Source of the DNA: an uncultured Desulfobacterales bacterium
GTDB lineage: Bacteria > Desulfobacterota > Desulfobacteria > Desulfobacterales > SURF-7
Length of the DNA: 48,704 nucleotides
Assembly (NCBI GenBank): GCA_964617785.1
Contig: CAZTYY010000002.1
Location: 1 to 48,704 of the forward strand
Direction: 5' to 3'
Shown here: positions 3,406-47,488 of the stretch, in pieces
How positions within the stretch are numbered: the stretch's first letter is position 1
Layout: every line of letters begins with the position of its first letter
Notes under the pieces: generated by a model
Databases searched by the model: none
What the model was told of the DNA's origin: nothing
The model's input: the letters and a program-made list of their open reading frames with translations, nothing else
Program-made: the position numbers and the translations under genes

Positions 3406-3408
3406 CTG

Positions 3409-3933: not shown

Positions 3934-3951
3934 TTTTACCGATGCCTTTGC

Positions 3952-4836: not shown

Positions 4837-4947
4837 AGAATTTTCTCCTTTTTTATAAGTCAAGTCACAGCAAGATGCTTAACATCGATCATTATCAAAA
4901 ATATTTATTTCAAAACAGCTGTTATGTAACAACGAGTTCACCCTTCG

Positions 4948-6831: not shown

Positions 6832-6836
6832 AACTT

Positions 6837-10475: not shown

Positions 10476-10480
10476 GGTTT

Positions 10481-13759: not shown

Positions 13760-13769
13760 TTTCTCCTCT

Positions 13770-15035: not shown

Positions 15036-15813
15036 TTTTTTCAGATGCCGATGTGGCCCTTCTTGAAAGAATAATCAGCATGACCACTGCAAGGGATGCC
15101 ATGGACCATCCGATGATCTGAGAAACGGAAAACATCTGAAAGACAACTTCACCGCGGAAATCAGCCCTGAACATCTCGTTTACTGATCGGATGATGCCGT
15201 AAAGCATAACATAGATCCAGAACAACTGGCCGTCGAATTTCATTCGACGTCTGATGAAAATCAGTATAAGAAAAATGACCAGGTTGCTTCCCGCAGCATA
15301 CAACTGGGTAGGATGAAGCGCAACGCCAATTGGCCTTGCCAAAGTCTGGGGATGGATAAAGGTAACCGCCCATGGAAGATCACAAACTTTTCCATAGCAG
15401 CATCCTGCAAAAAAACATCCGAGCCGTCCAAAGACATGGAGGATGGCGCCACTAGGCGCGACAATATCAGCGGTTTTCCATAATGGCAATTTGGTTTTTA
15501 TTATGTATATACCACCGGCTAAAAAACCACCGATAAAGGCCCCATAAAAAACGAGCCCGCCGTTCCATATACGGAATACCTCAAAAAAATCATCGGCAAA
15601 TATCTCCGGAGTCGTGATTATATAAAAAACTCTTGAACCGATCACGCCCGAGATGACCAAATAGAAACAAAGATCTGTTAATTTGTCAGGGTCCAGGCCG
15701 ACCCTTTTCCCTTCCTTTCTTGCAATTAAAAGACAGATCATAATGCCCATTGCAATTAAAAAACCATACGTATAAATAGTAAAACTGCCGATTTTCAATA
15801 GTATTGGATGCAT
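15028..15813 (-). CDS. lgt: Prolipoprotein diacylglyceryl transferase
   Basis: 261-aa membrane ORF with Lgt hallmarks: IYTYGFLIAMG, IWNGGLVFYGAFIGG, GRLGCFFAGCCYGK, HPTQLY. Confidence 0.9.
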   Translation of the reverse strand: MHPILLKIGSFTIYTYGFLIAMGIMICLLIARKEGKRVGLDPDKLTDLCFYLVISGVIGSRVFYIITTPEIFADDFFEVFRIWNGGLVFYGAFIGGFLAGGIYIIKTKLPLWKTADIVAPSGAILHVFGRLGCFFAGCCYGKVCDLPWAVTFIHPQTLARPIGVALHPTQLYAAGSNLVIFLILIFIRRRMKFDGQLFWIYVMLYGIIRSVNEMFRADFRGEVVFQMFSVSQIIGWSMASLAVVMLIILSRRATSASEKNV

Positions 15814-15816
15814 GTC

Positions 15817-16311
15817 TTAATTCTCTAAAGGCATTTTTTTAAAAATCAGGTGAAACAAAAAAATTGCCATGCCGATGGATATGGCGCTGTCGGCAATATT
15901 AAACGCCGGCCAGTGAATGTCCTTGATGTAAAAATCGAGAAAATCGACCACTGTGCCAAGTCGAATCCGGTCGATCATATTACCGATAGCGCCGCCGAAA
16001 ATCAGCGCAAATCCTGAGGCAAGGATTGGATGCGTTTTGGGAGTATTTTTATAAAAATAAAAAATAAATCCCATGGCTATGGTAGACACAACCAGAAACA
16101 AGATCGTACGTACCAAGAGGCTCTGGCCGGACATGAACCCGAACGCCCCACCCGGGTTGTAAATATGTGTAATATTGAAAACCCCCGGAATAACAACTAT
16201 CGAACTATACGGTGTGATCAGCTTTACGATAATCACCTTGGACACCTGATCAAATAAAACAATCAAAAACGAAACAACAATTAGAATTTTATACTTTCCC
16301 ATATTGATCAT
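15817..16311 (-). CDS. lspA: Lipoprotein signal peptidase (signal peptidase II)
   Basis: 164 aa, four TM segments. Motifs NPGGAFG, GGAIGNMIDR, FNIADSAISIG. Classical position downstream of ileS. Confidence 0.9.
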   Translation of the reverse strand: MINMGKYKILIVVSFLIVLFDQVSKVIIVKLITPYSSIVVIPGVFNITHIYNPGGAFGFMSGQSLLVRTILFLVVSTIAMGFIFYFYKNTPKTHPILASGFALIFGGAIGNMIDRIRLGTVVDFLDFYIKDIHWPAFNIADSAISIGMAIFLFHLIFKKMPLEN

Positions 16312-16344
16312 TAATCTGTTAAAACCATTTATATCATCCGTTTT

Positions 16345-19146
16345 TTATCCGATTTCAACAAGGGCGGTTCTACACCGCTCACATACTGTCGGCTTTTCAG
16401 CATCTTCGCCAACCGTCTGGTCATATATCCAGCACCGCTCACATTTTTCACCCGGTGCACTACCCACTAGGATTGACAGCCCTTCTATTTCTTCACTTTT
16501 ATAGTGTTCGCCTGTGTCAGGCAATTCATCTTTCAGCAGTGTTTTTGAAACAATAAAAATATGTCTCAATTCCTGTTCATATCCGCTGAGAAACGACAAA
16601 AGATCTTTGTCGGCACTGATAATCACTTCTGCGTCAAGCGGATGGCCGATGAGTTTCTTTGCCCTTGCAAGCTCCAGTGCCTTTGTCACTTCTCCACGGA
16701 TTTTGATGAGCTTTTCCCATTTTTCAGCAAGCGCATTGTCTTGCCATGCAGCGCCCGGTTCGACAAAACTCGCAAGATGGATACTCTCTTCCTTTGATTC
16801 TGCTGTTGGCATAAATTTCCATATTTCCTCTGAAGTAAAAGGAAGTATGGGCGCCATAATTCTGGCCACAGAGTCCAGAAGAATATGCATGACAGTCTGT
16901 GCGCTTCTTCGAGCTTGTGATGCCGGTGGCGATGTGTACAGCCTGTCTTTCAGTATGTCGAGATAAAACGAGGAAAGATCTACGGTGCAGTAGTTATAAA
17001 GCGAATGATATATGGTATGGAACTCATACCTGTCATAAGCGCCTTTTATCTTTTCTATCAACTCGCAGAGTTTGTGCAAAGCGAACCTGTCGATTTCGCT
17101 CATGGATTCCAGGGCAACCGAATCCTTGCCCGGATCAAAATCACTGATGTTTCCGAGCATGAACCGGCAGGTATTTCGGATTCTCCGGTATGTGTCGCTC
17201 AACTGCTTTAATATACTGTCCGAAATCCGAATGTCATCCCTGTAATCAGAAGCGGAAACCCATAGCCGTAAAATTTCTGCGCCAAACTGCTTGATCACCT
17301 TTTCAGGGGCAATCACGTTACCGACTGATTTAGACATTTTTTTCCCGTGAGCGTCCACCACAAATCCATGCGTCAATACAGCCTTATACGGCGCCTTATC
17401 CCTTGTTCCTACAGAATGAAGCAATGTGCTGTGAAACCATCCCCGATGCTGGTCACTTCCTTCAAGATAAAGATCGGCCGGCCATTCAAGATAATCACGC
17501 GCTTCCAATACTCCGGCATGGCTTACACCCGAATCAAACCATACGTCTAAAATATCATCCTCTTTGACCAGGTTTTTTGATCCGCATTTCCGACATTCAG
17601 TCCCATTGGGCAGAAAATCTTCAATTCCCTTTTCAAACCAGACGTCGGCTCCGTGTTCATCGAACATGGAGAAAATCTTTTCATCAACTTCCGGGTCTGA
17701 AACAACGGTTTGGCAATCTTCGCAATAAAAAACCGTAATCGGAACTCCCCAGGACCGCTGTCTTGACACACACCAGTCCGGCCTGTTCTCAATCATGCTG
17801 AAAATTCTATCCCTTCCCCATGACGGAATCCACTGTACTTTATCAATTTCAGCCAAAGACTTTTGTCTAAGGCCGGTATTGTCCATGGAGATAAACCACT
17901 GGGGTGTGGCCCGGAAAATAACCGGTTTTTTGCATCTCCAACAGTGGGGATACGAATGCGTGATCGTTTCCTCGGCAACCAGTGTATTGGTTTCCTTCAG
18001 TTTTTCGGTGATTTCCGAATTGGCCTTAAATACAAACGTGTTGCCAAAAAATTCCACGTCATCAGAAAAACATCCGTTATCCTCAACCGGTGAATATGCG
18101 TCCAATTCGTATTCAAGCCCTATTTCGAAATCCTCCCTTCCATGGCCGGGAGCAGTATGAACGCAGCCGGTACCGGCCTCAAGGGTTACATGTCGACCGA
18201 GTATGATAAGAGATTCCCGGTCATACAAGGGATGACGACATTTTTTTCTTTCGAGAGATCCGGCCTCAATATCCGCAAGAACCGAGTATTCTTCTTTTCC
18301 AAACGTTTTCATGCAGCCTTCCACAAGATCCTTTGCAACAATCACAACTTCGTCATTTCCGATATCAACAGCAGCATAGATAAAGTCAGGGTGAAGCGCC
18401 ACGGCGAGGTTGGCGGGCAGGGTCCACGGCGTGGTTGTCCATATCACCAAGAAAACCGATTTCCCTGAAAGTGCAGGGATATCGTCACCAAGGTTATCAA
18501 CCATCGGAAACCGGACGGAAATAGATGGTGACGACTCATCATGGTATTCGATTTCAGCCTCGGCAAGCGCGGTCTGGCAGCTGCAACACCAGTATATAGG
18601 CTTTTTACTTCTGAACAAAGCTCCGTTTTCAGCAAATTTCCTGCATTCTTTTGCAATGATTGCCTCATAGCGGTTTGTCATGGTCAGGTAAGGGTTGTCC
18701 CATTCACCTGACACGCCGAGACGCTTGAACTCTTCCCTCTGGATGTCGATAAATTTTTCAGCATATGTCCGGCATTCCTGCCTGACCTGTACCAGTGTCA
18801 TATCCTTCTTTTTCGAACCCAGCTTTTTATCTACGTTATGCTCAATCGGAAGACCGTGGCAGTCCCATCCCGGCACATATGGCGCGTCAAAACCAGCCAT
18901 TTGTCGGGACCTGATGATAATATCCTTTAATATTTTATTCAGGGCAGTGCCGATATGGATATGCCCGTTTGCATACGGTGGTCCGTCATGCAGAATAAAC
19001 CGCTTCCGGCTTTTTGATGCAGCCCTGATCTTCTCATACAGGTTGGCTTTATCCCATTCCTTAAGTTGCTCCGGTTCACGGTTGGCAAGGTTTGCTTTCA
19101 TGGGAAAGCCGGTATTCGGAAGGTTAAGTGTTTTTTTGTAATCCAT
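16345..19146 (-). CDS. ileS: Isoleucine--tRNA ligase
   Basis: 933 aa. HIGH motif [17 protein letters not shown] motif [11 protein letters not shown]1 editing region, C-terminal Zn-finger cysteines (CERCW...CERC). GGAG RBS upstream. Confidence 0.97.
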
Positions 19147-19190
19147 TTTTGCTCCGTTGATTATGCTTATTAACCATTAAAAATCTACGG

Positions 19191-19220
19191 ATTTTAAGTC
19201 AGGGAAGGTACGTGTGTCAA
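19191..19220 (-). promoter_or_regulatory. Candidate sigma70 promoter for ileS
   Basis: On the minus strand, TTGACA (19220-19215), an 18-nt spacer, then TAAAAT (19196-19191), about 45 nt upstream of the ileS ATG. Sequence match only. Confidence 0.4.
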
Positions 19221-19282
19221 GGATTAAAACAGAACTTTGTGAATACAGCATGTTGACTTGCTTCGATCAGGCAGAATGCTTA

Positions 19283-22200
19283 TTAGCCTTGCTTCATCCT
19301 GTGATGCAATCTTTCAGCCCTTAAGCAAAAGGCTTCAAGCTTAGCATGAATCAATTGTGGGAATGGAGATCCGTCACTTTCAATTGCCAGAAAAGGAAGT
19401 TCTTCAACATCTTCAAGAATAGACTTAAGTCGCTTGTCTTTCGGAGCAGTGGCAAGTTTGTCTTCCCTGTTCATGGTATCGTTCAATATCGCCTCGGACA
19501 TACGATTTGGCATGCAGCCAAAAGGTCCTATTGCAATAACACCGCATGCATGGTTTGCGATTTCGGTAATGGCGCTTCCAATGGTAAGGACTGCTTCACC
19601 CGCCAATTTGGGTGATATATAAGTCTTGGCATTATCAATCATGGTATCAATATCCACTAACTCGGCTTGAACAAGGCCTGATTTCCTCAGTAATGCCTTC
19701 AAATGTTTTTCATGTTTTGCCATGATTTTCTTTCTCAACATGAAACCCAATTTTTCCATGATCGTCATGGACATATAAACCATCTTTTTATCAACCAGGT
19801 AGTCCGAATAGATCAGCCATTCGGCAATCGGTGCACAGGTTACAGCAAAACCTCTTTTTGCGAGAAGCTCGGTCAAATACCTACGGGAAAGTCCGTCACG
19901 CCTCACAAATATTTCTCCTGCAAGATAGATCACCGGCACATCTTCAAGCGACAGCTTCATGGGAATCCCCCCGAGAATCCGGCTTGTTTCTTTAAGCCTC
20001 TTTTTCAGTCCCGCAAAATCTTCTGTTTCAAGGGTTTCCATTATCTTGGCCCATTCTTTTTCAAATATGCCTGTCCCTTTGTTAACATCCACGGCATTTG
20101 CGAGAATCATGGACCGGATGTCCTCCATTACGTCGGCCACAACAACCGCCCACCAGGTTTTAATATGCAAATCACCTCCAAGACCCGCGTAACTGTTTTC
20201 AGATGAAAGGGAAAGAAGCGCCACATCCGGAATCTCCAATCTCTTGATCAGATCCTCCATAAAAACAAAATACTGGCCAAACCGGCACGGCCCCGAGCCC
20301 GTGGGCATAAAATAGACGAGTATTTCTCCGTCTTTTTTGTAATTCCGAATATAATTCAGCAAAAATCCGGTGGTCAGCAAAAGCGGCAGGCACTCTTTGC
20401 AGCTCGTGTTGGCCCTGCCGAGCTTAAGAATCGCCTCATCTGCAGGCTGATGAACAATCGCGTTAAGCCCCTGGGATCTGAAAACGCTCCCGATGGCTTC
20501 CGTTGTCAAACGACCCATTGACGGAAAAAGCAATGTGACTTTCGGATCCCTCAGGGGAGCAGTTTTACCGGATGATGTGGTCACCACCGGGACACCGTTT
20601 TCAAGAGAGGTCTCGGCAGCCCTGAATCGGGTTATTTTTTCCGGGGTCTTCTCTATCCCCTCAAGCTGCCTGAATGTAGCCACAATATCAAGATAAGCCT
20701 CTATCCTTGTTTCAAGCCCTGCATCAGCCGTATGGCTGTCAAGTTCAAGGGTCAGGGAGGGCTTTTTGCCCATGATGCTTCTAAAATAGCCGATGAGAAA
20801 TGAATCCGGTCCACAAGAAAAATTGGTTATAAATGTACTGAAAAGCTGGGGGTGTTTTTTTACCAGCCTGGACGCCTTCATAATCTGCTGCCCCGCACCC
20901 CAGTACATGTGTTTTTTATCCCTTTCATCCTCAAGATTGAGAAAGTCGACGGGAATGACCTGGACGCCTCTTGACGCCAGTTTATGAGGAATCCCCATAT
21001 TGGCTTCCCCGACGTACCCGTTGTAAGGTCTGGCAAATATCACCATCGCAGTTCTGTCTGGATCTGATTCCAGTTCAGCCATAACCTTTTTGCCGATATC
21101 CTTCATCTCTCTGAAGCAGGCGTTCTGCGTATCTACTGCTTTTTTAAATGCGTTTACGGCCTTTTTCTTTCCTTCACCCATTTTTGCCGCGGTCTCAACA
21201 AACTGATCTATTGCTGTTTCAAGTCCTGTCCTTAGATCCAGAAGCGGCGCCAGTATTTGTTCGCTCTTTACTTTTAATTTTTCAATCTGTTCTCTGAATG
21301 TGGTCCGCAGATAGAATGTTTCGCCCTGAACAAACGGGCATACTTGTGAGCTTTCATTTCCGTTGCTGCTGGGTATGGATTTAAAATGAGGAAGAAATAT
21401 AAAATCAGGCTTGCCGCCCTTCTCAAGCCCGCCCTTCTCGATCATTGAATAGAAGAACCCGTGGGCCAGTTCTGCAGGATAGCAGAAAGCCGCCGACCGC
21501 CTATCGATCCCTTCCTTGGACGGCTCGTCCGGCAAGATGATTTCATATCCAAGTTCAGTAAAAAAAGTTGAATAAAGCGGATAAAAGGTATTCACCAGAA
21601 AACTTCGGTTGATCCAGACACGACCCTTCGGCGTTACCCCCTCTGACAATGAATCAGCATATTTATCAAAAATAAGCTCCTGCCTGAGCTTTATCAGGTC
21701 AAGTGTTTTAACGTCATAATCAATGTTGTGTCTTAAATTGTAATATCGGTTACAGGCACCGCCAAAAGGATACTTTTTCCCCACCAGCTCAATCATTGCA
21801 ATATTACATTGTCTGTCACATTTTTCTTTTCCGCCGCCGCATATAAATGATTTCCCATAGTTTACATCGCGAGCCGCAAGGGATTTAAGGTCAAACAGTC
21901 CGTCCTCAAGGAGGTTGTTTTCAATTCGTTTTTTTACCTCAAGAGCCACACCAAAGGCACCCATCAGCCCGGGTTCCGGCGGGACAATAATCGGTTTGCC
22001 CACAAGGGAGGCCATGGCCAATGGAATAGCATGGTTATAGCAAACACCGCCCTGCATGAAGATTTTCTCTCCAACCTGCCGGTTGCCTTTGACTCGGTTT
22101 GAATAGTTCATGCAGATGGAATAGACCAGCCCTGCAACAATATCCTCATGCGCCACACCTTCGTGAATCGCATTCTTAATATCCGACGAAATAAATGCAG

Positions 22201-23704
22201 CACACTGATCGTTAAAATTCGGAGGCTTCTTCCCCTTCATCGCAATATCTGCAATATCCTCCATTGCAACATTCAACGACTCAAGAGCCGACTCTTCAAG
22301 AAATGATCCCGTCCCTGCCGAGCACGCCTCGTTCATCGCATAATCAGAAGATACACCGTTGGTAATATACGTATATTTTGCGTCCTGCCCGCCTATTTCA
22401 AAGATCGTATCCACTTTATCATCAAAATGTACAGCCGCGGCAGCATGTGCAATGATCTCGTTTATGACGCCGTCTGTCAGGGCGTGAAGTCCTGCAATTT
22501 GGCGGCCTGAGCCGGTGACGCCAAGGCCTGTAATAGTGATACTGTCGGGGTCGACACTCGATTCCACCTGCTGAAGTATCGATTCGTAACACTTCCGAGA
22601 TGCGCCCACCGGATCTCCGCTGGTCCTTAGATAGATGGTGGCGAGCATGGCATTGTCGTCTATTCGTAAGAGCACTGCCTTTGTGGTTGTAGACCCCACG
22701 TCAAGGCCCAGAATGCAGTGATCCCCTTCCCTCACCTTGTCTGTTTTAATGGTTTTAAATTCCACCTGATCCTTAAAATCTGATAAGGGAGGTAAAGATT
22801 CAAAAGGTTCAATCTCAGTCCTGAAAAGCGACTCTTTTCCGGGAAACGGGTCGGTCTGGTTGTCCAGTGCCCACAACGCCGTACCCAGGGCCTCAAAATA
22901 CGGGGCTTCTTCAGGAACGATCAATCCCGGTATTTCAGCTTTAAGATTGTCGATCATCATCCGGTTCAATGCTGTCCCACCGGTCATCATGATGTTTTGA
23001 CGGCCCACTTTTTTCAAAAGCTCAAGCACCTTGTTCGACATCATGACACAGAGTCCGGCCGTTACTTTTGATTTTGGAATTCCCTTGTTGGTAGCGTGGG
23101 TACAGTCTGATTTACAAAACACTGAGCAACGCCCTGACACATGGTGAGGATCTTCATTATCGGTCCAGTCTTCTATATCCTCAAGAGATATATCCATTCT
23201 TCTCAACTGCTGGAGAAAAAATTCCCCGGTGCCCGAGGCGCACTTGTTGCCTGTCAGCACGTTTGATATCTTACCTTTGCTGTTCAGCACATAGGTCATG
23301 AAGGTTTCACCGCCAGCGGAAACCACAGCGGGACAGGAAACATCTTTTGGTTTTACAAACCTGAACGCATATTCAACTGCTTCCGGTTCTGAAATGGAGG
23401 ACAGGTTAACGAACTTGTGAAATTTTCTTCCGGTTACCGCGATTTTGTCAAAAATATCAAAATCGAGGTTTTCCACAACAGACATCATGGTCTGCTTTGG
23501 ATCGCCGCCATGGTAGTGAACCGAAGCGTCGACGATACGTGCACCATTGTCAACCCCTGTCCCGTCACTTTGGTTTTCGTTGCTGTTGGCCTCCACCTGT
23601 ACTACAGATATGGTTGAAGCGCCCAGGCAAATGCCGAGGCTCATTCTTTTTCCATTGGAATGACTGTTATCAGTCATCTCTATATTTGATATTCCTTCTT
23701 TCAT
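19283..23704 (-). CDS. Giant fusion protein: two BcrA/BadF/HgdC-type activator ATPase domains plus 2-hydroxyacyl-CoA-dehydratase-like (activase-related) C-terminal domains
   Basis: 1473 aa. Two ASKHA ATPase modules each carry the activator cluster-ligand pattern (NKCASGTGEFF / GRCSVFCKSD and NEACSAGTGSFL / DQCAAFISSD). A long C-terminal region resembles the CoA-enzyme-activase-associated domains found in very large activase proteins. Confidence 0.8.
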   Translation of the reverse strand: MKEGISNIEMTDNSHSNGKRMSLGICLGASTISVVQVEANSNENQSDGTGVDNGARIVDASVHYHGGDPKQTMMSVVENLDFDIFDKIAVTGRKFHKFVNLSSISEPEAVEYAFRFVKPKDVSCPAVVSAGGETFMTYVLNSKGKISNVLTGNKCASGTGEFFLQQLRRMDISLEDIEDWTDNEDPHHVSGRCSVFCKSDCTHATNKGIPKSKVTAGLCVMMSNKVLELLKKVGRQNIMMTGGTALNRMMIDNLKAEIPGLIVPEEAPYFEALGTALWALDNQTDPFPGKESLFRTEIEPFESLPPLSDFKDQVEFKTIKTDKVREGDHCILGLDVGSTTTKAVLLRIDDNAMLATIYLRTSGDPVGASRKCYESILQQVESSVDPDSITITGLGVTGSGRQIAGLHALTDGVINEIIAHAAAAVHFDDKVDTIFEIGGQDAKYTYITNGVSSDYAMNEACSAGTGSFLEESALESLNVAMEDIADIAMKGKKPPNFNDQCAAFISSDIKNAIHEGVAHEDIVAGLVYSICMNYSNRVKGNRQVGEKIFMQGGVCYNHAIPLAMASLVGKPIIVPPEPGLMGAFGVALEVKKRIENNLLEDGLFDLKSLAARDVNYGKSFICGGGKEKCDRQCNIAMIELVGKKYPFGGACNRYYNLRHNIDYDVKTLDLIKLRQELIFDKYADSLSEGVTPKGRVWINRSFLVNTFYPLYSTFFTELGYEIILPDEPSKEGIDRRSAAFCYPAELAHGFFYSMIEKGGLEKGGKPDFIFLPHFKSIPSSNGNESSQVCPFVQGETFYLRTTFREQIEKLKVKSEQILAPLLDLRTGLETAIDQFVETAAKMGEGKKKAVNAFKKAVDTQNACFREMKDIGKKVMAELESDPDRTAMVIFARPYNGYVGEANMGIPHKLASRGVQVIPVDFLNLEDERDKKHMYWGAGQQIMKASRLVKKHPQLFSTFITNFSCGPDSFLIGYFRSIMGKKPSLTLELDSHTADAGLETRIEAYLDIVATFRQLEGIEKTPEKITRFRAAETSLENGVPVVTTSSGKTAPLRDPKVTLLFPSMGRLTTEAIGSVFRSQGLNAIVHQPADEAILKLGRANTSCKECLPLLLTTGFLLNYIRNYKKDGEILVYFMPTGSGPCRFGQYFVFMEDLIKRLEIPDVALLSLSSENSYAGLGGDLHIKTWWAVVVADVMEDIRSMILANAVDVNKGTGIFEKEWAKIMETLETEDFAGLKKRLKETSRILGGIPMKLSLEDVPVIYLAGEIFVRRDGLSRRYLTELLAKRGFAVTCAPIAEWLIYSDYLVDKKMVYMSMTIMEKLGFMLRKKIMAKHEKHLKALLRKSGLVQAELVDIDTMIDNAKTYISPKLAGEAVLTIGSAITEIANHACGVIAIGPFGCMPNRMSEAILNDTMNREDKLATAPKDKRLKSILEDVEELPFLAIESDGSPFPQLIHAKLEAFCLRAERLHHRMKQG

Positions 23705-36918: not shown

Positions 36919-37008
36919 AAAACTTCTTCTCTTGTGTGCTTTGAGCGATTCACTTTTGGAGAAGCTTTATTATATTCCCGTAAATGTCAATATGAAGAAT
37001 CGGAACAA

Positions 37009-37488
37009 ATGGTTAAGGTGTTGGAAAAGAAATCCAAAAGACATCTTGAAGGTAGAGCAGAAAAAACGTTGAAGGAAAGCGTAAAATTAAATGAACTTCC
37101 TTTTGGCACAGAAACGATCCTTCTTGTTGATGATGAAATATCCCTCTTGGATGTAATAAGACTGATGTTGGAGCGACTTGGGTATAATGTTGAAACTAAA
37201 ATGGACCCAACAGAAGCGCTGGAACTGTTTCAAACAAAGCCTGATCATTTTGATATAGTAATAACCGACGTGACAATGCCACAAATGACCGGTATTAAGT
37301 TGTCCGAAAAGCTAATGGAGATTCGCCCTGATATTCCGATAATTGTCTGCACAGGACACAGTCATTTGGTCAATGAAGAAAAAACCAAAGAGGTAGAAAT
37401 AGCCGCTTTTATAAAAAAGCCAATTGCTTTTAAGAATCTAGCAAAAACTGTTCGCAAGGTGTTGGACGCCAAGCCAATTGAGCGATAG
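37009..37488 (+). CDS. Orphan single-domain response-regulator receiver protein
   Basis: Receiver motifs ILLVDDE, DIVITDVTMPQMTG, IIVCTGH, IKKPI; no output domain. Start uncertain (GTG 36934 in the track; ATG 37009 used here). About 30-55 aa of non-receiver leader precede the domain. Confidence 0.75.
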   Translation: MVKVLEKKSKRHLEGRAEKTLKESVKLNELPFGTETILLVDDEISLLDVIRLMLERLGYNVETKMDPTEALELFQTKPDHFDIVITDVTMPQMTGIKLSEKLMEIRPDIPIIVCTGHSHLVNEEKTKEVEIAAFIKKPIAFKNLAKTVRKVLDAKPIER

Positions 37489-37495
37489 CGGTTTC

Positions 37496-37524
37496 TTGAC
37501 ACCTGATATTCTTTTTTTTATATT
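37496..37524 (+). promoter_or_regulatory. Near-consensus sigma70 promoter for the hydrolase-GRE-activase operon
   Basis: TTGACA (37496-37501), a 17-nt T-rich spacer, then TATATT (37519-37524). It lies about 40 nt upstream of the ATG at 37564, which has an AAAGGAG RBS. Confidence 0.55.
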
Positions 37525-37563
37525 CCAAACAGACACACAATTTGTTATTAAAGGAGAAGCCCC

Positions 37564-38352
37564 ATGGCCAATTACTCAGCACTAGATTGCCCGGAAATTC
37601 TTTCCTTCCTTTTTCACCCAAGGCCGGACACCGGCTTTTCAGGAAATGACTCAAATTTTCAAGATTTCTTTATTCAAGTCGAAGACAATATCGACGTTCA
37701 CGCCAGACTTTACCCGGCTGACGTAAACGCTCCCACCATACTCTTTTTTCACGGAAACGGTGAGATTGTTGCTGACTATGAAGACATGGCACCATTATAT
37801 ACAAAAATGGGCATTAATTTTTTTCCAGCAGACTATCGCGGATACGGACGCTCCACAGGTATGCCGACGGTTACCGCTATGATGGAAGACGCCCACAAAA
37901 TTTTTCATTTTGCAAAAAATACGCTGACGGAAAATGGCTATACCGGTCCAGTCATTATCATGGGCAGGTCTCTTGGCAGCGCGCCTGCGCTTGAGCTGGC
38001 CTCCAATTATCAGGACGACATATCTGCCCTGGTTATTGAAAGCGGATTTGCATATGCTCTGCCCCTTCTTAGACTTCTCGGTATTGATGTGGACTCACTG
38101 GGCATTAGCGAAGAAAACGGGCTTCAGAATATCGACAGGGTAAAAAACTTTGAAAAGCCGGCTCTTTTTATTCATGCGGAATTTGATCATATCATCCCTT
38201 TCACCGATGCACTGGCCCTGTATCATGCATGCCCTGCCGAGGATAAAAACCTTTTAAAAATACCAAGGGCCAATCATAACACAATTTTTTCTTATGGAAT
38301 GGACGATTACATGAAAGCTGTTAAAGAGATTTGTTTTAAAAAAGACGAATGA
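37564..38352 (+). CDS. Alpha/beta-fold serine hydrolase (esterase/lipase/peptidase-like)
   Basis: 262 aa. Oxyanion-region HGNGE, nucleophile elbow GRSLGS, acid AEFDHIIP, His in RANHNT. Confidence 0.85.
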   Translation: MANYSALDCPEILSFLFHPRPDTGFSGNDSNFQDFFIQVEDNIDVHARLYPADVNAPTILFFHGNGEIVADYEDMAPLYTKMGINFFPADYRGYGRSTGMPTVTAMMEDAHKIFHFAKNTLTENGYTGPVIIMGRSLGSAPALELASNYQDDISALVIESGFAYALPLLRLLGIDVDSLGISEENGLQNIDRVKNFEKPALFIHAEFDHIIPFTDALALYHACPAEDKNLLKIPRANHNTIFSYGMDDYMKAVKEICFKKDE

Positions 38353-38375
38353 CCGAATAGAAGAAAGGAATAAAA

Positions 38376-40835
38376 ATGGAAGCAACTGTCAGTGAAAGTT
38401 TTACGGAATCGGTCAACCCTGATACAAAGTCTTTACCTAAAGCGACTTCCCGGATAAATAAAATCAGGGCAGACATTCTTGCCACAAAAAATTCCATCTG
38501 TCTTGAACGCCCCCTTCTCATGCAAGAATTCGGAAAATCACCTGAAGGGCGGAGGGCAAAAAAAGAACACCCTCTTGTAAAAAGAGCCCTTGAACTTTCC
38601 CATATTCTGTCCAAAAGATCATCGAAAATTTATGACCAGGAACTGATCATCGGAAACATGACGTCCAAACGTATTGCCGCCAACTATTATCCTGAAGGAG
38701 GATCCATAAATATCCTTGAGGATATCTTCAGGCTTGAAAAAAGAAGAATCCCTATTGTGCTAAGCGCACGGGAAAAAAGACAGCTTGTGGGCATAGGTCT
38801 TTCCACCTTAATGAGCAGCATTGGAGGCAAAGCCCTGTTAAAACCCGGCAGATTTTCCCATTTCCTGGATTTCTTCCGTGCAAAACGTTATTTTATTACA
38901 GAAGAAGCCGGCATAGGGCACCAGGTTGGAGGATACAGACAGGTCGTTCACAAGGGATTAAAAGAGGCGGATATTGCTGCAGGCCGCTGCCTGGATAACG
39001 GCACTCTGGATAACGGCTCCAGCCTTACAAAAGACCAGATCGCCTTTTTTAAGTCTGTCAGAATTGTAATCAAAGGTATCAGGCAGATGACTGCGAATCT
39101 GGCAGAGAAAGCCGAACAGATTGCAAACCAATCCGGCATCACAGCTGAGCGGCGGGATGAACTCATAAAGTCGTCGGAAGCCTGCCGCCATGTTCCCTAT
39201 GAACCGGCACGTTCATTTATTGAGGGCCTTCAGGCCTGCTGGCTTGTCCATGTGGCCATGAATCTTGAGGATTTTGAACAGGGAATGTCCTTTGGTAGAC
39301 TTGATCAGATCCTTTTTCCGCTTTACATAAAAGATATTGAGTCCGAAGCCCTGACATATGATCAGGCAGTTGAAATCATGGCAAGCTTTCAGTTAAAAAC
39401 CTGTGAAACAATTCCCATATACTCTGAAAGGATAGACCATTATTTCAGCGGAGGCGGTGTAGCCCAGGGTATTACTACCGGCGGGACCGACGATGAGGGA
39501 GCAGATGTAACAAATCAGCTTTCAGGCCTGATTCTTGATGCGTATGCGTGTATTCGGACACGTGAACCAGCACTTCATGTCAGGGTTCATTCTGAAACAC
39601 CCGCCTGGTTTCTTAAAAAATCTGCTGCTGTGGTTCAGCTGGGTTGCGGTAAGCCGTCCTTTTTTGGAGATGAACAGGTGGTGCACGCCCTCGAAGGCAT
39701 CGGCATGAGTAAAGCTCATGCACGTGATTATGCCGTCATCGGATGCGTTGAAATGGCAAGCCAGGGTCGGACGTACAACTCATCCGATGCGGCTCTGTTC
39801 AATCTTCCCATATGCCTTGAACTCGCACTCAACCAGGGGCGCAGCTTCATGGGATGGAATCTTCCCGGGTTTCGTATGGGGGCGTCGACTCCACCTGTTT
39901 CACACATGCACACCTTCGACGATGTGCTTTCCGCCTTCAATGTCCAGGTGAAAAATTCAATGGATGAAATAGTGAAAGTGATAACATGGCTGGAAAAGAC
40001 ATACCGGATATGGCGCCCTACCCCAATCAACTCCATTGTTACAAAGGGTTGCCTGGAAAGCGGGCGGGATGTAACATGGGGCGGCGGTTTTTACGACATG
40101 ACATCGATTCAGGCAGCAGGGCTTGCTGACACCGGAGATTCTTTCTATGCATTAAAAAAGCTTGTTTTTGACGAAAAACGGTTTTCATTGAAAGAATTTG
40201 TCAGCATACTTAAGGATGATTTTAAAGGACATGATGCACTGCGCCGGGAAATTTCCACAAAGTTCCTAAGGTATGGGAATGGTGATAAAAATGCGGACAG
40301 CATGACACAGCTGGCAGCAGACATCTATTCCGATGCGGTAAAGTCCTATAAAAACAGCAGAGGAGGACAATACGTTCCCGGGATTTACTCCATGACCTGC
40401 CATATCGGTTTTGGACGATATACAGGCGCATTGCCGGATGGACGCCGACAAGGCGCACGTCTTTCAAACGGGTTGTCACCCATTGACGGTTCAGACCGCA
40501 ACGGACCGACAGCTCTTCTCCGCTCTGCTGCTTCTCTTGACAGCAGCAAATGGGCAAACTGTTGTGCGCTGAATATCAAGTTCGACAAAAAAGCAGTTCA
40601 GGGAAAAGCAGGTTTAAACGCGCTTCACAGCCTGTTTAAAACATATTTTGAACAGGGCGGAATGCAGGTTCAGGCGAACGTGCTGGATTCAGAGATGCTC
40701 ATGGAAGCAAAGCGCGACCCCTCCCTCTGGCCTGGGCTTGTTGTTAGAGTAGCCGGATACTGCGCCTATTTCAATGATCTTCAGCCGGAAGTTCAGGATG
40801 AGATTATTGAAAGGACGGTCTGTGGAATCGGATAA
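38376..40835 (+). CDS. Glycyl-radical enzyme, PFL2/glycerol-dehydratase-like family (Cys-x-Glu active site), substrate unknown
   Basis: 819 aa. C-terminal glycyl radical motif VVRVAGYCAYFNDL (Gly794, nt 40755-40757). Thiyl loop VIGCVEMASQG (Cys457, Glu459, nt 39744-39752). TTGGTDDEGADVTNQLS and LPDGRR...GLSPIDGSDRNGPTALL blocks typical of the family. Confidence 0.95.
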   Translation: MEATVSESFTESVNPDTKSLPKATSRINKIRADILATKNSICLERPLLMQEFGKSPEGRRAKKEHPLVKRALELSHILSKRSSKIYDQELIIGNMTSKRIAANYYPEGGSINILEDIFRLEKRRIPIVLSAREKRQLVGIGLSTLMSSIGGKALLKPGRFSHFLDFFRAKRYFITEEAGIGHQVGGYRQVVHKGLKEADIAAGRCLDNGTLDNGSSLTKDQIAFFKSVRIVIKGIRQMTANLAEKAEQIANQSGITAERRDELIKSSEACRHVPYEPARSFIEGLQACWLVHVAMNLEDFEQGMSFGRLDQILFPLYIKDIESEALTYDQAVEIMASFQLKTCETIPIYSERIDHYFSGGGVAQGITTGGTDDEGADVTNQLSGLILDAYACIRTREPALHVRVHSETPAWFLKKSAAVVQLGCGKPSFFGDEQVVHALEGIGMSKAHARDYAVIGCVEMASQGRTYNSSDAALFNLPICLELALNQGRSFMGWNLPGFRMGASTPPVSHMHTFDDVLSAFNVQVKNSMDEIVKVITWLEKTYRIWRPTPINSIVTKGCLESGRDVTWGGGFYDMTSIQAAGLADTGDSFYALKKLVFDEKRFSLKEFVSILKDDFKGHDALRREISTKFLRYGNGDKNADSMTQLAADIYSDAVKSYKNSRGGQYVPGIYSMTCHIGFGRYTGALPDGRRQGARLSNGLSPIDGSDRNGPTALLRSAASLDSSKWANCCALNIKFDKKAVQGKAGLNALHSLFKTYFEQGGMQVQANVLDSEMLMEAKRDPSLWPGLVVRVAGYCAYFNDLQPEVQDEIIERTVCGIG

Positions 40836-41820
40836 TGTCGAAATAAAGGAAACATCGGTTTTTTCAATCCAGCACTTCTGTCTTCAGGACGGCCCCGGTA
40901 TCAGAAGCATTGTTTTTTTCAAAGGGTGCCCACTGCGTTGCGCCTGGTGCCAGAATCCCGAATCATGGAATAAAAAACCGGAACTGGCCTTTAAAGCACA
41001 TTTATGTATAGGTTGTGAAACATGTTTAGATGCCTGCCCTCAAAACGCGGTTCTGTCTCCTGGGAATCGTGATAGGAACTTGTGCCGCCTTTGCTTCACC
41101 TGCGTGGACAAATGTCCTTCATCAGCGTTGACCCGCTTTGGCGTTTATCGTTCTGTTGATGACATAGTGAAAGAGCTCAGGTCTGAATATGCTTTTTACA
41201 AAAATTCAAGAGGAGGTGTCACCTTTTCAGGGGGAGAACCAACCCTTTTTCCGGATTTCGCAACCAGACTTGCACTGGCCCTGAGAAAAGACGGCATTCA
41301 TGTGGCAATTGAGACTTGCGGCATGTTTCAATCACATGGAATGAAAGATGTAACGGACCCACCGGATCCAACTGGTCCAACAGGCGCACCACAGGACAAA
41401 GTATGGGATTTTCTTTCATTGATTGACCTTATCATTTTTGATGTTAAATTGTTCGATAATGAAGTACACAAACAATATTGCGACACTGGAAATGCCTCAA
41501 TAAAATATAACCTGAAGCGCCTTTCAGAACTCAAACAAAGCGGACAGGGCCCTGATGTCCGGCTACGTATGCCGGTTATCCCGGGGATTACGGATACGGC
41601 CGACAACCTTTCCGGCTGGGCCGGTTTTCTTGCCGAAAACAACTTTTCAGCCATTACACTGGTGCCGTACCATAATATGGGTGAATCAAAGCGGTCATGG
41701 ATAGGTCTTGCGCCGGGCCCTGACCTCCCCTCTTTGACAGATACGGCCATGAATGCTGTCCGGGAGTTTTTTGCTGCCAGAAGCTTCGCCTGTTATAATC
41801 CTGGAGAAGAACAAACGTAA
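40822..41820 (+). CDS. Glycyl-radical-enzyme activating enzyme (radical SAM, with two auxiliary ferredoxin-like clusters)
   Basis: DGPGIRSIVFFKGCPLRCAWCQNPES (CX3CX2C), CIGCETCLDACP and CRLCFTCVDKCP, GGVTFSGGEPTL. Start proposed at GTG 40822 (GAAAGGA RBS, 14-nt overlap with the GRE); the track ORF starts at ATG 40774 deep inside the GRE. Confidence 0.9.
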   Translation: MESDNVEIKETSVFSIQHFCLQDGPGIRSIVFFKGCPLRCAWCQNPESWNKKPELAFKAHLCIGCETCLDACPQNAVLSPGNRDRNLCRLCFTCVDKCPSSALTRFGVYRSVDDIVKELRSEYAFYKNSRGGVTFSGGEPTLFPDFATRLALALRKDGIHVAIETCGMFQSHGMKDVTDPPDPTGPTGAPQDKVWDFLSLIDLIIFDVKLFDNEVHKQYCDTGNASIKYNLKRLSELKQSGQGPDVRLRMPVIPGITDTADNLSGWAGFLAENNFSAITLVPYHNMGESKRSWIGLAPGPDLPSLTDTAMNAVREFFAARSFACYNPGEEQT

Positions 41821-41830
41821 AGAGTAAAGC

Positions 41831-42535
41831 CTATTTCTTGCGAATAAATTTCATCCTGACCGATCCGATTTGAATTGTGTCAAATTCTTCAAGCTTGACA
41901 GGTTCATTCTTTACCGGCACATTGTTGACCTTTGGTTTTATGACACCCTCAACACGACTGATGTAATAATCGGCATCCCTTTTACTGATCATTGCCGCAT
42001 AGTTACCCACAAGAAAACCGCTGACCACAATATCAAAAGAAGGATTTTTACCGATCTTGGTAATTTTTTTGTTCAGTACGATATCCTCTCCACCGCCTGA
42101 TATAAAAGACAAAACCCCAAGCATACCGTCATCTTCTGCGTAATCTTCCTGTCCGGATGCCATACCTGTCATCATCGCACGATGCCTTTCCGTGTCCATC
42201 ATCATGGTTTTATCTATATCACCCGGATCAGGCCTTTTTTCCCCTTCAATGTATTCAAAAACAAGCGAGTGTTTTCCTATGTTGATAACATCTCCATGGC
42301 TTAAATAATGGGACAACACAAGCTGTTCATTTACAAAAGAACCGTTTTTGCTCTTAAGGTCTGTAAACAGGTGTCCATTTCCCACTGAATCAATTTTAGC
42401 GTGATGGCCGGAAACAGCCAGGTTTTCAATAACAATATCGTTTGTATTTCTTCTACCGATGTCAAGAGAGCTGTTTTTTCCAAGATTATATTCTTCAACA
42501 ACATTTTCATTGAATTTCAGTATGATTTTCGGCAT
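41831..42535 (-). CDS. FHA-domain protein (canonical N-terminal FHA plus divergent C-terminal FHA-like domain)
   Basis: 234 aa. N-terminal LDIGRRNTNDIVIENLAVSGHHAKI...DLKSKNGSFVNEQ...GDVINIG. The C-terminal half has an FHA-like fold pattern (KIGKNPSFDIVV...IQIGSVRMKF) but lacks the conserved Ser/His. Confidence 0.8.
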   Translation of the reverse strand: MPKIILKFNENVVEEYNLGKNSSLDIGRRNTNDIVIENLAVSGHHAKIDSVGNGHLFTDLKSKNGSFVNEQLVLSHYLSHGDVINIGKHSLVFEYIEGEKRPDPGDIDKTMMMDTERHRAMMTGMASGQEDYAEDDGMLGVLSFISGGGEDIVLNKKITKIGKNPSFDIVVSGFLVGNYAAMISKRDADYYISRVEGVIKPKVNNVPVKNEPVKLEEFDTIQIGSVRMKFIRKK

Positions 42536-42574
42536 CTTTTTCTCCTTTTAAGGAATTGTTCAAATTTATAGTTT

Positions 42575-43414
42575 TTATCCTTTATTTTTAAAAATATAAT
42601 CCCTGATAAATTCAATTATCCAGAATAGGCTTTTTCTCGCTGATGCTACTTTTGCGACAATAACAGTGATATTGTCCTCTCCTCCCCGTTCATTTGCAAG
42701 ATGAATGAACTGCCTGCATGCACCTTCAGGAACATTTTTTTTAGCCACGTCCCTGATCTCCTCCAAAGACAATTTATCACTTAACCCGTCTGAACAGATG
42801 ATAAATATATCATCTGTTAAAAACTGCATTTCAGTAATATCCGGTTTGACTCTACCCGGAACACCCATGGCACGTGTCAGAACATGCTTGAAATCAGGTC
42901 GCAGTTTATCTTTTCCGTCAGGATTAAGGGCCTCATGTTCCGCAAGCACTGTATGAATTTTGGAAATAAGCTCAATCGTTTCATTGCGAACCAGGTAGAC
43001 CGGACTGTCGCCAACATTTATTACAATACATGTATATTCAGTGAAGTAGAGTGCAGATGCTGTTGAACCCATGCCTTTTAAATCTTTATTGCCTGACGCG
43101 GCTTGATGAACGGTTCTGCTGGCCAGGTTTATTCCGGAAAGAATTCGGTTTGCCTCAGGCGAAAGTGTTTCATCAATTTCTTCTTTATCTTTATTATATT
43201 TTTTTTTGGTTTCATCGTCTTTTTTATTGGCTGTTCTCAGATAATCGTAAACCGTCTCAACAACCATCTTGCTTGCGACTTCTCCTGCCTTGTGTCCACC
43301 CATGCCATCGGCAACAATATAAAAGCCAAGAGAATCGTCAATTAAAAATTCGTCTTCATTATTATCTCTTCTTTGGCCGACATCGGTAAGGCCTGCGGAT
43401 TCAATCGAAAACAT
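42575..43414 (-). CDS. PP2C-family Ser/Thr protein phosphatase
   Basis: 279 aa. LTDVGQRRDNNEDEF, VADGMGGHKAGEVAS, ICSDGLSD, GGEDNITVIV. Confidence 0.9.
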   Translation of the reverse strand: MFSIESAGLTDVGQRRDNNEDEFLIDDSLGFYIVADGMGGHKAGEVASKMVVETVYDYLRTANKKDDETKKKYNKDKEEIDETLSPEANRILSGINLASRTVHQAASGNKDLKGMGSTASALYFTEYTCIVINVGDSPVYLVRNETIELISKIHTVLAEHEALNPDGKDKLRPDFKHVLTRAMGVPGRVKPDITEMQFLTDDIFIICSDGLSDKLSLEEIRDVAKKNVPEGACRQFIHLANERGGEDNITVIVAKVASARKSLFWIIEFIRDYIFKNKG

Positions 43415-43808: not shown

Positions 43809-44276
43809 TTATTCTTTGGGGTGACACTCTTTACATCCAACCGGGCCGGTTTCAGGCAGCTCTTTCGGCTCGTCGTAAGACATCACTATATCTGTTTTTT
43901 TGGTCTTTAATTCAACATGGCAGGTTCTGCAGTTGTTGTGATAGGCATATTTATAATACTTCATTGATTCATCTGTATATTTACCTTTTCTTAAAGGCTT
44001 TTTTGAATAGGTTGTCAGATCATGACATCCGGAAGTCATACAGCCCTTGATCTCCCCTTTATTGTCCCACTTGTGGTGGCATTTTTTACAATTGTAGTTA
44101 AAATGGAGTGAATGAGGGAATTCAACGGAAGCCCTCTCCTGTTTAACATCGGCAGGAGGTTCCAGCAACAGCGTACCCGTGGGGATACACATCTCTTCTT
44201 CACCTGCGGTCACACCGTTAACAACAAAAACAGCTATGATCATCATACTTAACATCGCTATATTCACTCTGCGCAT
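43809..44276 (-). CDS. Tetraheme cytochrome c3-family protein (periplasmic)
   Basis: Four heme sites: CKKCH, CMTSGCH (CX4CH), CRTCH, CKECH, plus extra His ligands. Signal peptide MRRVNIAMLSMMIIAVFVVNGVTA. Start set at the ATG preceded by AAGGGGGA; the track ORF extends to 44411. Confidence 0.85.
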   Translation of the reverse strand: MRRVNIAMLSMMIIAVFVVNGVTAGEEEMCIPTGTLLLEPPADVKQERASVEFPHSLHFNYNCKKCHHKWDNKGEIKGCMTSGCHDLTTYSKKPLRKGKYTDESMKYYKYAYHNNCRTCHVELKTKKTDIVMSYDEPKELPETGPVGCKECHPKE

Positions 44277-44352
44277 TTCGATCCCCCTTAATCGATTTTT
44301 TATCAGATATTTCTTAAAAAAAGGATACATATCCCTTTTTGTAAAACTTTTC

Positions 44353-44407
44353 AACCATTTTCTGAACCATTTTTGAACCATTATCAGAGCCATTATCAGA
44401 ATAATGG
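44353..44407. repeat. Four (A/G)(A/C)CCATT units at 11-12-bp spacing plus a 7-bp hairpin, upstream of the cytochrome c3 gene
   Basis: tcAACCATTTTCTGAACCATTTTTGAACCATTATCAGAGCCATTATCAGAATAATGG. CCATTAT / ATAATGG is an inverted repeat with loop CAGA. Confidence 0.6.
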
Positions 44408-44638
44408 GCACAACAACAAAGGGCTAACGCGAGGTACGCCTCTGCAATATGTCAGGTTTAATATATAAAAATTTACTGAAATTACTTTTTTATATCGCAA
44501 TTTTTAATATTTTCTGATATAGTAAGACAATATTTCAAAGCACACATTCCAAAATATATATAATCCGTATAAGGATCTTTTCAAAATTCGGACTATTTAT
44601 GACACTGTTGGCAAATAGTTTAATTTCATAAATTCTAT

Positions 44639-46570: not shown

Positions 46571-47488
46571 TCATACGTCAATCGATGCTTTTTTAAATAT
46601 ACTCTTACATTCATTCAACTTGTCCTGACTCATCCATTCCGACATGGTTTTGTCATTGACGGCTGGATCTTCCATTCCTATTTTCAGATTCTTTTCCTGC
46701 CATAGCGGGTGATATGGCATCAGCTCTGCTTTTTTAACGTTGAATTCTTTAAGAAAGGATGCAATGGCATTTATGTTTTCCTCTGCGTCCGTCATACCGG
46801 GTATGACAGGTATTCTCGGCAGAATTTCAACGCCTCCTTTAAGATAAAGTGAGTAGAGGGATGTGAGATTTTCAAGAATAACGTTATTACCGACACCGCA
46901 CAACCGCCGATGCTCGTTATTCTCAAATATTTTTATATCGAAATAGATCAAGTCAAGATGCGGGTATACAAGATCCATAAATTTTTTCAGGCTAAACTGT
47001 CCGCATGTCTCGAGAAGTATATGAATGCCTTCAGCCTTACAAGCAATAATGAGCCGGGACAAAAAAGTCATAGACAGGGTCGGCTCTCCTCCAGAAAACG
47101 TAACCCCCCCGCCCGAGTTATCAAAGAACGGTTTATCCTTGATTACCTGTGCAACGATTTCTTCTACAGTCATTTCTATTCCAACCTTTGAAAGTGCGCC
47201 GGAAGGGCAACTTTCCGTACACTCAAAGCACAGACTACATTTTTCCCTGTCCACAAAAAACCGGCTGGATCTTGAAAGTGCGCCGTCATTGCAGGTTTCA
47301 ATGCATGTGTCACATCCGATGCACTCGGAAGAGTCAAAGGATATTTCATATCCCGGCACCTTACTTTCAGGGTTATGACACCATACACATGACAGCGGAC
47401 ATCCTTTCATGAACACAACCGTCCGTATTCCAGGCCCGTCATCAAGCGAGTTGCCCTTTATTTCCAGTGTCAGAGGTTCTTTGCTCAA
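46571..47488 (-). CDS. Second glycyl-radical-enzyme activating enzyme-like radical SAM protein (no adjacent GRE)
   Basis: 305 aa. DDGPGIRTVVFMKGCPLSCVWCHNPES (CX3CX2C), CIGCDTCIETC and CSLCFECTESCP, GGVTFSGGEPTL. Confidence 0.85.
   Translation of the reverse strand: MSKEPLTLEIKGNSLDDGPGIRTVVFMKGCPLSCVWCHNPESKVPGYEISFDSSECIGCDTCIETCNDGALSRSSRFFVDREKCSLCFECTESCPSGALSKVGIEMTVEEIVAQVIKDKPFFDNSGGGVTFSGGEPTLSMTFLSRLIIACKAEGIHILLETCGQFSLKKFMDLVYPHLDLIYFDIKIFENNEHRRLCGVGNNVILENLTSLYSLYLKGGVEILPRIPVIPGMTDAEENINAIASFLKEFNVKKAELMPYHPLWQEKNLKIGMEDPAVNDKTMSEWMSQDKLNECKSIFKKASIDV

Follow-up and report, generated by a model that had tools for sequence, protein, structure and literature searches.

The question raised by the stretch of DNA studied here (the window: 48,704 nt, positions 1 to 48,704 of contig CAZTYY010000002.1, assembly GCA_964617785.1, from an uncultured Desulfobacterales bacterium) is which reaction is catalysed by the glycyl-radical enzyme (GRE) that it encodes, and whether the alpha/beta-hydrolase gene standing ahead of the GRE gene has a part in that reaction. 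The answer that we hold to be probable, with considerable room for doubt, is that the GRE and its activating radical S-adenosylmethionine (SAM) enzyme form a self-sufficient module of an uncharacterised clade of the Cys-x-Glu (CXE) eliminase/isomerase type, to which a co-transcribed, lineage-specific esterase is joined. The features concerned are the following.

37496..37524, + strand: predicted sigma-70-like promoter, TTGACA-17-TATATT (hexamers 37496-37501 and 37519-37524; 40 nt 5' of the hydrolase start codon)
37564..38352, + strand: alpha/beta-hydrolase, 262 aa (PF12146/PF00561; triad Ser136-Asp208-His238)
38353..38375, + strand: hydrolase-GRE gap, 23 nt, holding GAAAGGA, the ribosome-binding site of the GRE gene
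38376..40835, + strand: GRE, 819 aa (PF02901 and PF01228)
40774..41820, + strand: GRE-activating radical-SAM enzyme (operon activase; TIGR02494), overlapping the 3' end of the GRE gene

The sequence-only reading of this locus had described the promoter, a 262-aa Ser hydrolase with a GRSLGS elbow, the 23-nt gap, an 819-aa GRE with VVRVAGYCAYF (Gly794) and IGCVEM (Cys457-x-Glu459) and without a Cys-Cys pair, and an overlapping activase with one CX3CX2C and two CX2CX2CX3C clusters; all of these were recovered in our analysis.

Both Pfam domains of the PFL-like GRE superfamily were detected in the 819-aa protein (PF02901 at 1.7e-139, PF01228 at 6.3e-26), i.e., the barrel and the C-terminal glycine-radical domain with RVxG[FWY] (here VVRVAG794YCAYF), and a cognate radical-SAM activase with CX3CX2C is encoded nearby. 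The Cys loop holds a single thiyl Cys (IGC457VE459M); the adjacent Cys-Cys pair of the formate-lyases was not found in this loop, and the score against the pyruvate formate-lyase model TIGR01255 was 112 bits (cut-off, 994), which separates the GRE from the pyruvate/2-ketobutyrate formate-lyases. The CXE motif, defined as Cys-x-Glu on the Cys loop (PMC13450708), is present as C457-V-E459, is invariant in 17 diverse family members that we aligned, and is in keeping with the 1,2-eliminase/isomerase class; ITEEAGIGH and LEDFEQGMSFGR are further signatures of the family. None of the NCBIfam equivalogs was reached (HypD, 437 bits against a cut-off of 1100; HpfG, 435 against 1000; CutC, 398 against 1050; HpsG, 374 against 1000; IAD, 339 against 1100; HPAD, 259 against 1150; and TIGR01255 as above), every score being less than half of its cut-off, and the score for the broad PFL2/glycerol-dehydratase subfamily (TIGR01774) was 591 bits, below the cut-off of 678. 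When the GRE was compared with all PDB sequences, the top matches were PFL2 of A. fulgidus (AfPFL2, 2F3O; 429 bits, E 2.7e-127), glycerol dehydratase (GDH; 398 bits), CutC (382 bits) and PflD (364 bits); BLASTP identity was 32% to AfPFL2 and 31% to GDH, with 36% between AfPFL2 and GDH, and 32% is the maximum to any solved or characterised GRE. An AlphaFold (AF2) model built from the 17-sequence alignment predicted the GRE fold (predicted template modelling score 0.82), and Foldseek gave template modelling (TM) scores of 0.75-0.82 to every PFL-like GRE structure, with GDH, AfPFL2 and propanediol dehydratase (PD) the highest, at structure-based identities of 20-31%. A review of June 2026 lists as characterised GRE eliminases glycerol dehydratase (GD), PD, HpfG, HypD, HpyG, HpzG, CutC, IslA/IseG and HpsG, and as isomerases HplG, YbiW and PflD, and describes entire GRE clades without validation (PMC13450708). 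As far as sequence comparison can tell, the GRE of the window is no known enzyme and is an uncharacterised one of the Cys-x-Glu type. The sequence-only reading had proposed the same and had set high identity to a characterised GRE as a test, which is not the case here (32% at most).

Relatives of the GRE are numerous and close. In the protein database, 378 were found at E <= 1e-50, the best 120 being 63-91% identical, and a scan of species-representative genomes gave 80 family GRE loci (52-91% identity). Scores within the family are 1147-1730 bits, against 429 bits (32% identity) for the best solved structure, and the mean column identity is 73% across the 17 aligned members. A neighbor-joining (NJ) tree places the family in a single long-stemmed clade, apart from AfPFL2, from GDH and from divergent paralogues in two of the loci (L008, from ~13055 onward, and L040, ~2619-5000); these second, far more divergent GREs lie a few kb from the family GRE and branch near AfPFL2, outside the family. 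On the Desulfobacterota side, hosts of the 80 loci are Desulfobacterales (including Desulfatibacillum alkenivorans DSM 16219 and metagenome-assembled genomes (MAGs) of Desulfosudis oleivorans), Smithella and Syntrophales; the others are Chloroflexi, Bacillota with Syntrophomonadaceae, Actinomycetota, Spirochaetota with Leptospirales, and Fluviicoccus (Gammaproteobacteria). At least six phyla are represented among its hosts, which are anaerobes of sediments, groundwater and the subsurface and count sulfate reducers and syntrophs among them; cultured hosts are D. alkenivorans (DSM 16219) and Fluviicoccus keumensis (DSM 105135). A literature search on this GRE clade in Desulfatibacillum returned nothing relevant, and we regard the predicted clade as tight, widespread and genuinely uncharacterised.

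AfPFL2, the solved structure that matches best by sequence, is the subject of a debate over whether it is a GD or a MASS (PMC13450708), and Desulfatibacillum, Desulfosudis oleivorans and Smithella are among the hosts of the family. On these grounds the GRE might be taken for an X-succinate synthase that activates hydrocarbons, a function proposed for PFL2/PflD of A. fulgidus. We find this barely credible: the GRE shows 32% identity with AfPFL2 and 21-22% with BSS and MASS (4pkf, 9o8u), the CXE motif and a GDH-type His are present, no small-subunit open reading frame (ORF) was found between or after the GRE and activase genes, and the family also occurs in lineages not known for hydrocarbon degradation (Fluviicoccus, Leptospirales, Actinomycetota).

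The only general partner of the family GRE, as judged by de novo ORF clustering of the 80 loci, is the activase, which adjoins the GRE gene in 55 of them (tblastn), nearly always directly downstream. The operon activase of the window scored 279 bits against TIGR02494 (cut-off, 174) and carries CX3CX2C with two ferredoxin-like CX2CX2CX3C motifs. Its start may be ATG 40774, ATG 40798 or GTG 40822 (the last with an AAAGGA site ahead), and the overlap with the GRE gene is therefore 14-62 nt; overlaps of a similar kind are seen in other family loci.

In the HMMER alignment, His182, Cys457, Glu459 and Asp471 of the window GRE correspond to His164, Cys433, Glu435 and Asp447 of GDH. We take Asp447 to have a catalytic role, and His281, Ser282 and Tyr339 of GDH to be pocket residues. 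For GDH, hydrogen abstraction has been assigned to Cys433, with Glu435 as the base that acts on the C1 hydroxyl and His164 as the acid that serves the departing one (PMC13450708). The four catalytic counterparts are invariant among the 17 aligned members, as are Gln302, Gly303, Ala363, the insertion Glu176-Glu177-Ala178 (EEA) and Arg171. By analogy with GDH and other CXE enzymes, we infer that the activase and SAM would generate a radical on Gly794, which would be transferred to Cys457; the Cys457 thiyl would then abstract a hydrogen from the carbinol carbon of a small hydroxylated substrate, Glu459 would deprotonate that hydroxyl, and His182, aided by Asp471, would protonate or position the vicinal leaving group, so as to give a carbonyl product via 1,2-elimination or ring-opening isomerisation. 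The GRE is, most likely, a predicted 1,2-eliminase or isomerase acting on some hydroxylated substrate. The sulfonate lyases IslA, IseG and HpsG, which cleave C-S bonds, bind their sulfonate through two Arg and one Gln (PMC13450708; PMC6453916); at the corresponding spacings from the catalytic Cys (-279, -275) the window GRE has Ala178 and His182, a comparison of spacing only and not of alignment, at identities of 23-26%.

With regard to the hydrolase, the promoter ahead of it agrees with the consensus at 11 of 12 positions and is the top sigma-70-like match in 36.5-42.7 kb. Sigma-70-like sites are over-abundant in the promoter-scan region (18, against 10.5 +/- 3.1 in shuffles), and therefore only this near-consensus site is notable; we infer that it functions as a promoter. 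No convincing terminator was found between the hydrolase, GRE and activase genes, and the predicted arrangement is read here as a real, promoter-driven three-gene operon. The hydrolase has the fold, the Ser-Asp-His triad and the GxSxG-type elbow (GRS136LGS) of alpha/beta-hydrolase esterases/lipases, and Ser136, Asp208 and His238 are invariant in 18 aligned homologues. In its AF2 model (predicted local distance difference test (pLDDT) 92) the nearest folds are monoacylglycerol lipases and feruloyl/cinnamoyl esterases (Foldseek top matches 7q4h/9h0z, 6eic, 2wtm and 7wwh; TM ~0.7, 15-23% identity), and no close solved relative was found by sequence. We therefore call it a predicted carboxylesterase (esterase/lipase by the modelled fold).

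Its link to the GRE is confined to a narrow group. When the 80 loci were searched with the hydrolase by tblastn, it was found 5' of the GRE only in the sister locus L001 (a 91%-identical MAG), with one unrelated 26% match elsewhere. A search from the hydrolase side gave hydrolase followed by GRE in four further lineages or contig sets, e.g., L081 (hydrolase 76% and GRE 79% identical, with RND efflux genes upstream), L082-L084 (75% and ~78%, with PqqD-like genes upstream) and L093/L094 (84% and 80-81%). The pair is kept in five of the six lineages of this sub-clade (GRE at least 78%, hydrolase at least 75% identical) with rearranged flanks, which argues against a one-off accident. Hydrolase homologues number more than 7000 at E < 1e-20, and the matches listed outside the GRE-linked sub-clade are ~57-67% identical; around those at 58-67% identity (P0126, P0131, P0139, P0208, P0219) no GRE was found, and their contexts are unrelated. 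The residues predicted for the GRE active site do not vary among the 17 diverse members in the alignment, and the link is absent outside the sub-clade; evidently, then, the GRE works without the hydrolase in most hosts. The sequence-only reading had asked whether the linkage is unique to this genome: it is not, occurring in five of six sub-clade lineages, and it is restricted to one small lineage. Most likely, the GRE-activase module of this lineage acquired, or landed beside, an esterase gene with which it is now co-transcribed, and the hydrolase is a lineage-specific add-on recruited from a large family whose members otherwise occur alone. A partnership so confined tells little about the function of the clade, and a functional coupling of hydrolase and GRE even in this lineage seems to us somewhat doubtful.

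Several observations weigh against the reading of a self-sufficient CXE eliminase/isomerase module with a co-transcribed esterase. On the side of the GRE, His281, Ser282 and Tyr339 of GDH are replaced by Gln302, Gly303 and Ala363, and the three-residue EEA insertion stands ahead of His182 relative to GDH, so that the chemistry could differ from a simple dehydration; AfPFL2 has an insertion of equal length before its catalytic His. The AF2 model is at its least confident, with pLDDT under 50, in the loops of the active site (160-184, 348-362, 454-474 and 673-697), and the CXE motif occurs in the arylacetate decarboxylases too. On the side of the hydrolase, the link is missing from 78 of the 80 genome loci, and in L092 a hydrolase 85% identical to that of the window has no GRE downstream, the next gene being on the opposite strand. 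As a separate observation, the loops of low pLDDT (the Cys loop and the substrate-contacting ones) are the most conserved parts of the GRE sequence.

The pocket residues bear at once on the possibility that the GRE is a B12-independent glycerol/1,2-diol dehydratase, to which the lipase-like hydrolase would supply glycerol from monoacylglycerol. The catalytic His, Cys, Glu and Asp of GDH have conserved equivalents (His182 standing for His164), among structures, GDH and PD lie nearest to the GRE model, and monoacylglycerol lipases are among the nearest folds of the hydrolase. The identity to GDH is, however, 31%, the TIGR01774 score is below the cut-off, the remaining pocket residues are the three replaced ones, the insertion is present, and genes for 1,3-propanediol or aldehyde dehydrogenases and microcompartments were found neither here nor among the 25 most frequent families of a 227-protein neighbour census (see below). 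We consider this explanation improbable. The pocket of the GRE, a CXE eliminase/isomerase as predicted, would be larger and more polar or charged than that of GDH, and glycerol or propanediol is therefore an unlikely substrate; from sequence, choline, hydroxyproline and the known sulfonates are not indicated either. An arylacetate-type decarboxylase, a class likewise of Cys-x-Glu type, would agree with the CXE motif and with an activase that has two auxiliary clusters like those of HPAD and IAD; nevertheless, IAD and HPAD (339 and 259 bits; 20% identity to 2y8n) are the weakest of the CXE matches, no small-subunit gene was found, and the GDH-type His182 and Asp471 are conserved. We regard it as very improbable. 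Because the pocket is unlike that of every characterised enzyme, the clade is likely to carry out a radical elimination or isomerisation not described before, on an anaerobic carbon (or sulfur/nitrogen) substrate that is new as well.

The absences of the hydrolase have to be set against an obligate two-step pathway, in which the esterase de-esterifies or de-acylates a conjugate, the freed alcohol is the substrate of the GRE, and the three genes form one functional unit. Such a unit would be in keeping with the single near-consensus promoter before the hydrolase gene, the 23-nt gap with its ribosome-binding site, the lack of a terminator found between the genes, the overlap of the hydrolase stop and the GRE start in L081 (7001-10248), the retention of the pair in the sub-clade with differing flanks, and a hydrolase fold like that of monoacylglycerol lipases and feruloyl esterases, which free alcohols or polyols; in addition, four other lineages (L020, L046, L062, L065) have a "releasing" enzyme, resembling a pyridoxal phosphate (PLP) beta-lyase, directly upstream of and co-directional with the GRE. 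Nevertheless, 78 of the 80 loci lack the link, the predicted GRE active site being unchanged across the 17 members; the hydrolase belongs to a family of more than 7000 with 58-67% identical members in unrelated contexts; L092 has it without a GRE; and alpha/beta-hydrolases occur beside family GREs at background frequency, without enrichment, and are not orthologous to one another. We hold the obligate pathway to be possible and, on balance, doubtful; the two-step route of the sequence-only reading, de-esterification followed by radical cleavage, is weakly supported by the kept pair and opposed by the other loci. Under the preferred reading, in which the module is self-sufficient, the hydrolase may free the GRE substrate from an ester in this lineage, and the GRE would in general not depend on it.

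For the substrate hunt, neither the hydrolase nor the acyl-CoA genes are the informative partner; that part falls to a PLP lyase with its permease and to a GntR/FCD regulator. When Pfam domains were counted for the two genes flanking the GRE on each side in 66 loci (a census of 227 proteins), PALP was found 7 times, GntR/FCD, SDR and receiver domains 6 times each, amino-acid permease 5 times and alpha/beta-hydrolase ~3 times; neither half of the census had shell proteins, aldehyde dehydrogenases or sulfite reductase among its 25 commonest families. Genes for shell proteins, aldehyde/alcohol dehydrogenases and sulfite reductase were likewise not found within ~9 kb of the operon, and the lack of the usual substrate-revealing neighbours, pointed out before, extends from this locus to the 66 related ones. 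A PLP enzyme with an APC amino-acid permease stands beside the family GRE in ~10 lineages scattered over the whole tree (L020, L035, L037, L045, L046, L061, L062, L065, L073; also L011 and L016), and this pair is the only cross-phylum partner of the GRE besides the activase. The PLP enzyme is of the D-cysteine desulfhydrase/1-aminocyclopropane-1-carboxylate (ACC) deaminase family (best PDB match 7ysk, 3e-40; NCBIfam CuyA score 191 against a cut-off of 450), and an M28/M20-type peptidase joins the module in three loci (L044, L045, L073). A GntR/FCD regulator divergent to the GRE was found in seven Desulfobacterota loci, mostly Desulfobacterales, the regulators being 39-70% identical among loci; it stands immediately upstream of the GRE in L005-L007, L015, L019 and L035, and in L042 it lies within 7 kb. 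The closest outgroups to the sub-clade of the window are among these loci; the sub-clade itself has the hydrolase at that position.

The PLP/permease and GntR/FCD partners are the reason for proposing an amino-acid-derived or carboxylate substrate: the family-wide context points to a small compound of this kind, and the PLP-permease module, although absent from the window, is the best lead to it. A literature search for a GRE with cysteine desulfhydrase and permease returned nothing relevant, nor did one for a hydrolase-GRE cluster. It is a tentative and rather unlikely proposal that the clade acts on a substrate new to GREs which is cut from a conjugate, by the PLP beta-lyase after APC uptake in many phyla and by the esterase here. 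Speculatively, this could be a hydroxylated thiol or diol that is freed from an S- or O-substituted amino acid and then catabolised; one example, equally speculative, would be thioglycerol from lipoprotein-derived S-glycerylcysteine, cleaved in the manner in which HpsG/HpfG cleave dihydroxypropanesulfonate.

Other candidate partners were rejected. Members of an SDR cluster (c2, 11 loci) and of a second alpha/beta-hydrolase cluster (c6, 6 loci) are 0-34% identical and represent background, and genes of the HGD-D (2-hydroxyacyl-CoA dehydratase-like), HpaB/4-hydroxybutyryl-CoA-dehydratase-like and thiolase types each occur in one or two related lineages only. It had been suggested that the ACAD, ADP-forming acyl-CoA synthetase, Fe-S pair and PAS-LuxR genes of the window complete a catabolic pathway; this did not hold, as by tblastn of the 80 loci none of them, and neither the FHA nor the PP2C gene, is conserved with the GRE beyond the sister L001. 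A receiver-domain-only response regulator (36934-37488, + strand) ends 8 nt before the promoter; L001 lacks this gene and has the Fe-S gene directly ahead of the hydrolase. On the - strand at 41831-43414, genes for a PP2C Ser/Thr phosphatase (Stp1-like, 190 bits) and for a protein with an FHA domain converge on the activase gene with only 10 nt between the stop codons; no other locus was found to have them close to the GRE. The window further holds a run of very large ORFs at 4948-23704 (- strand; 627, 1219, 1106, 421, 261, 164, 933 and 1473 aa).

One more gene of the window concerns the activase.

46571..47488, - strand: second GRE-activase paralogue, 305 aa (TIGR02494, 299 bits)

This paralogue is 41% identical to the operon activase and is conserved in L001, and no second GRE with which it could be paired was found within the window. 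Relative to it, the operon activase has a Pro/Gly-rich insertion of ~19 residues (DPPDPTGPTGAPQDKVWDF; window 41377-41433, residues ~194-212). The second activase may be related to the operon system, and its type may serve the GRE in relatives without an adjacent activase, such as L081. In that locus there is no activase downstream of the GRE, and the next recognisable gene is for cytochrome c3, as at 43809-44411 of the window, so that the activase/FHA/PP2C block looks like an insertion or deletion between lineages.

Among known systems, the E. coli tdc operon comprises the PLP dehydratase TdcB, the permease TdcC and the GRE TdcE. The family GRE beside a PALP enzyme and an amino-acid permease in ~10 lineages resembles it by analogy; however, the family GRE is without the Cys-Cys of the formate-lyases, the PLP enzyme is of the D-cysteine desulfhydrase/ACC deaminase type and not a threonine dehydratase, and the module is absent from the window. 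The GDH of C. butyricum (1R8W) and the propanediol dehydratases (5I2A, 9RCO) share with the window GRE the fold (TM 0.80-0.83) and the Cys, Glu, His and Asp at the catalytic positions, and their activases are of the two-ferredoxin-cluster type, as is the operon activase; they differ in identity (25-31%), in the three replaced pocket residues, in the EEA insertion, and in the downstream dehydrogenase or microcompartment genes that the window operon is without. PDB 9RCO, considered as a possible new function, was set aside because it is a GRM3 propanediol dehydratase. AfPFL2, the best sequence match among solved structures, has TM scores of 0.81-0.86, the common GCVE Cys loop, the catalytic His and an equal loop length before it (LTEIAGISH in AfPFL2, ITEEAGIGH in the window GRE); its identity of 32% is no closer than that between AfPFL2 and GDH, and the NJ tree puts AfPFL2 outside the clade of the family. 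CutC, HypD, HpyG, HpzG, HpfG, HpsG, IslA/IseG, HplG, YbiW and PflD are each 23-28% identical to the window GRE, and have in common with it the CXE Cys loop, the glycyl-radical motif and a dedicated activase. The CXE eliminases/isomerases probably share a general mechanism in which a hydrogen is abstracted and elimination then proceeds with the help of the Glu (PMC13450708).

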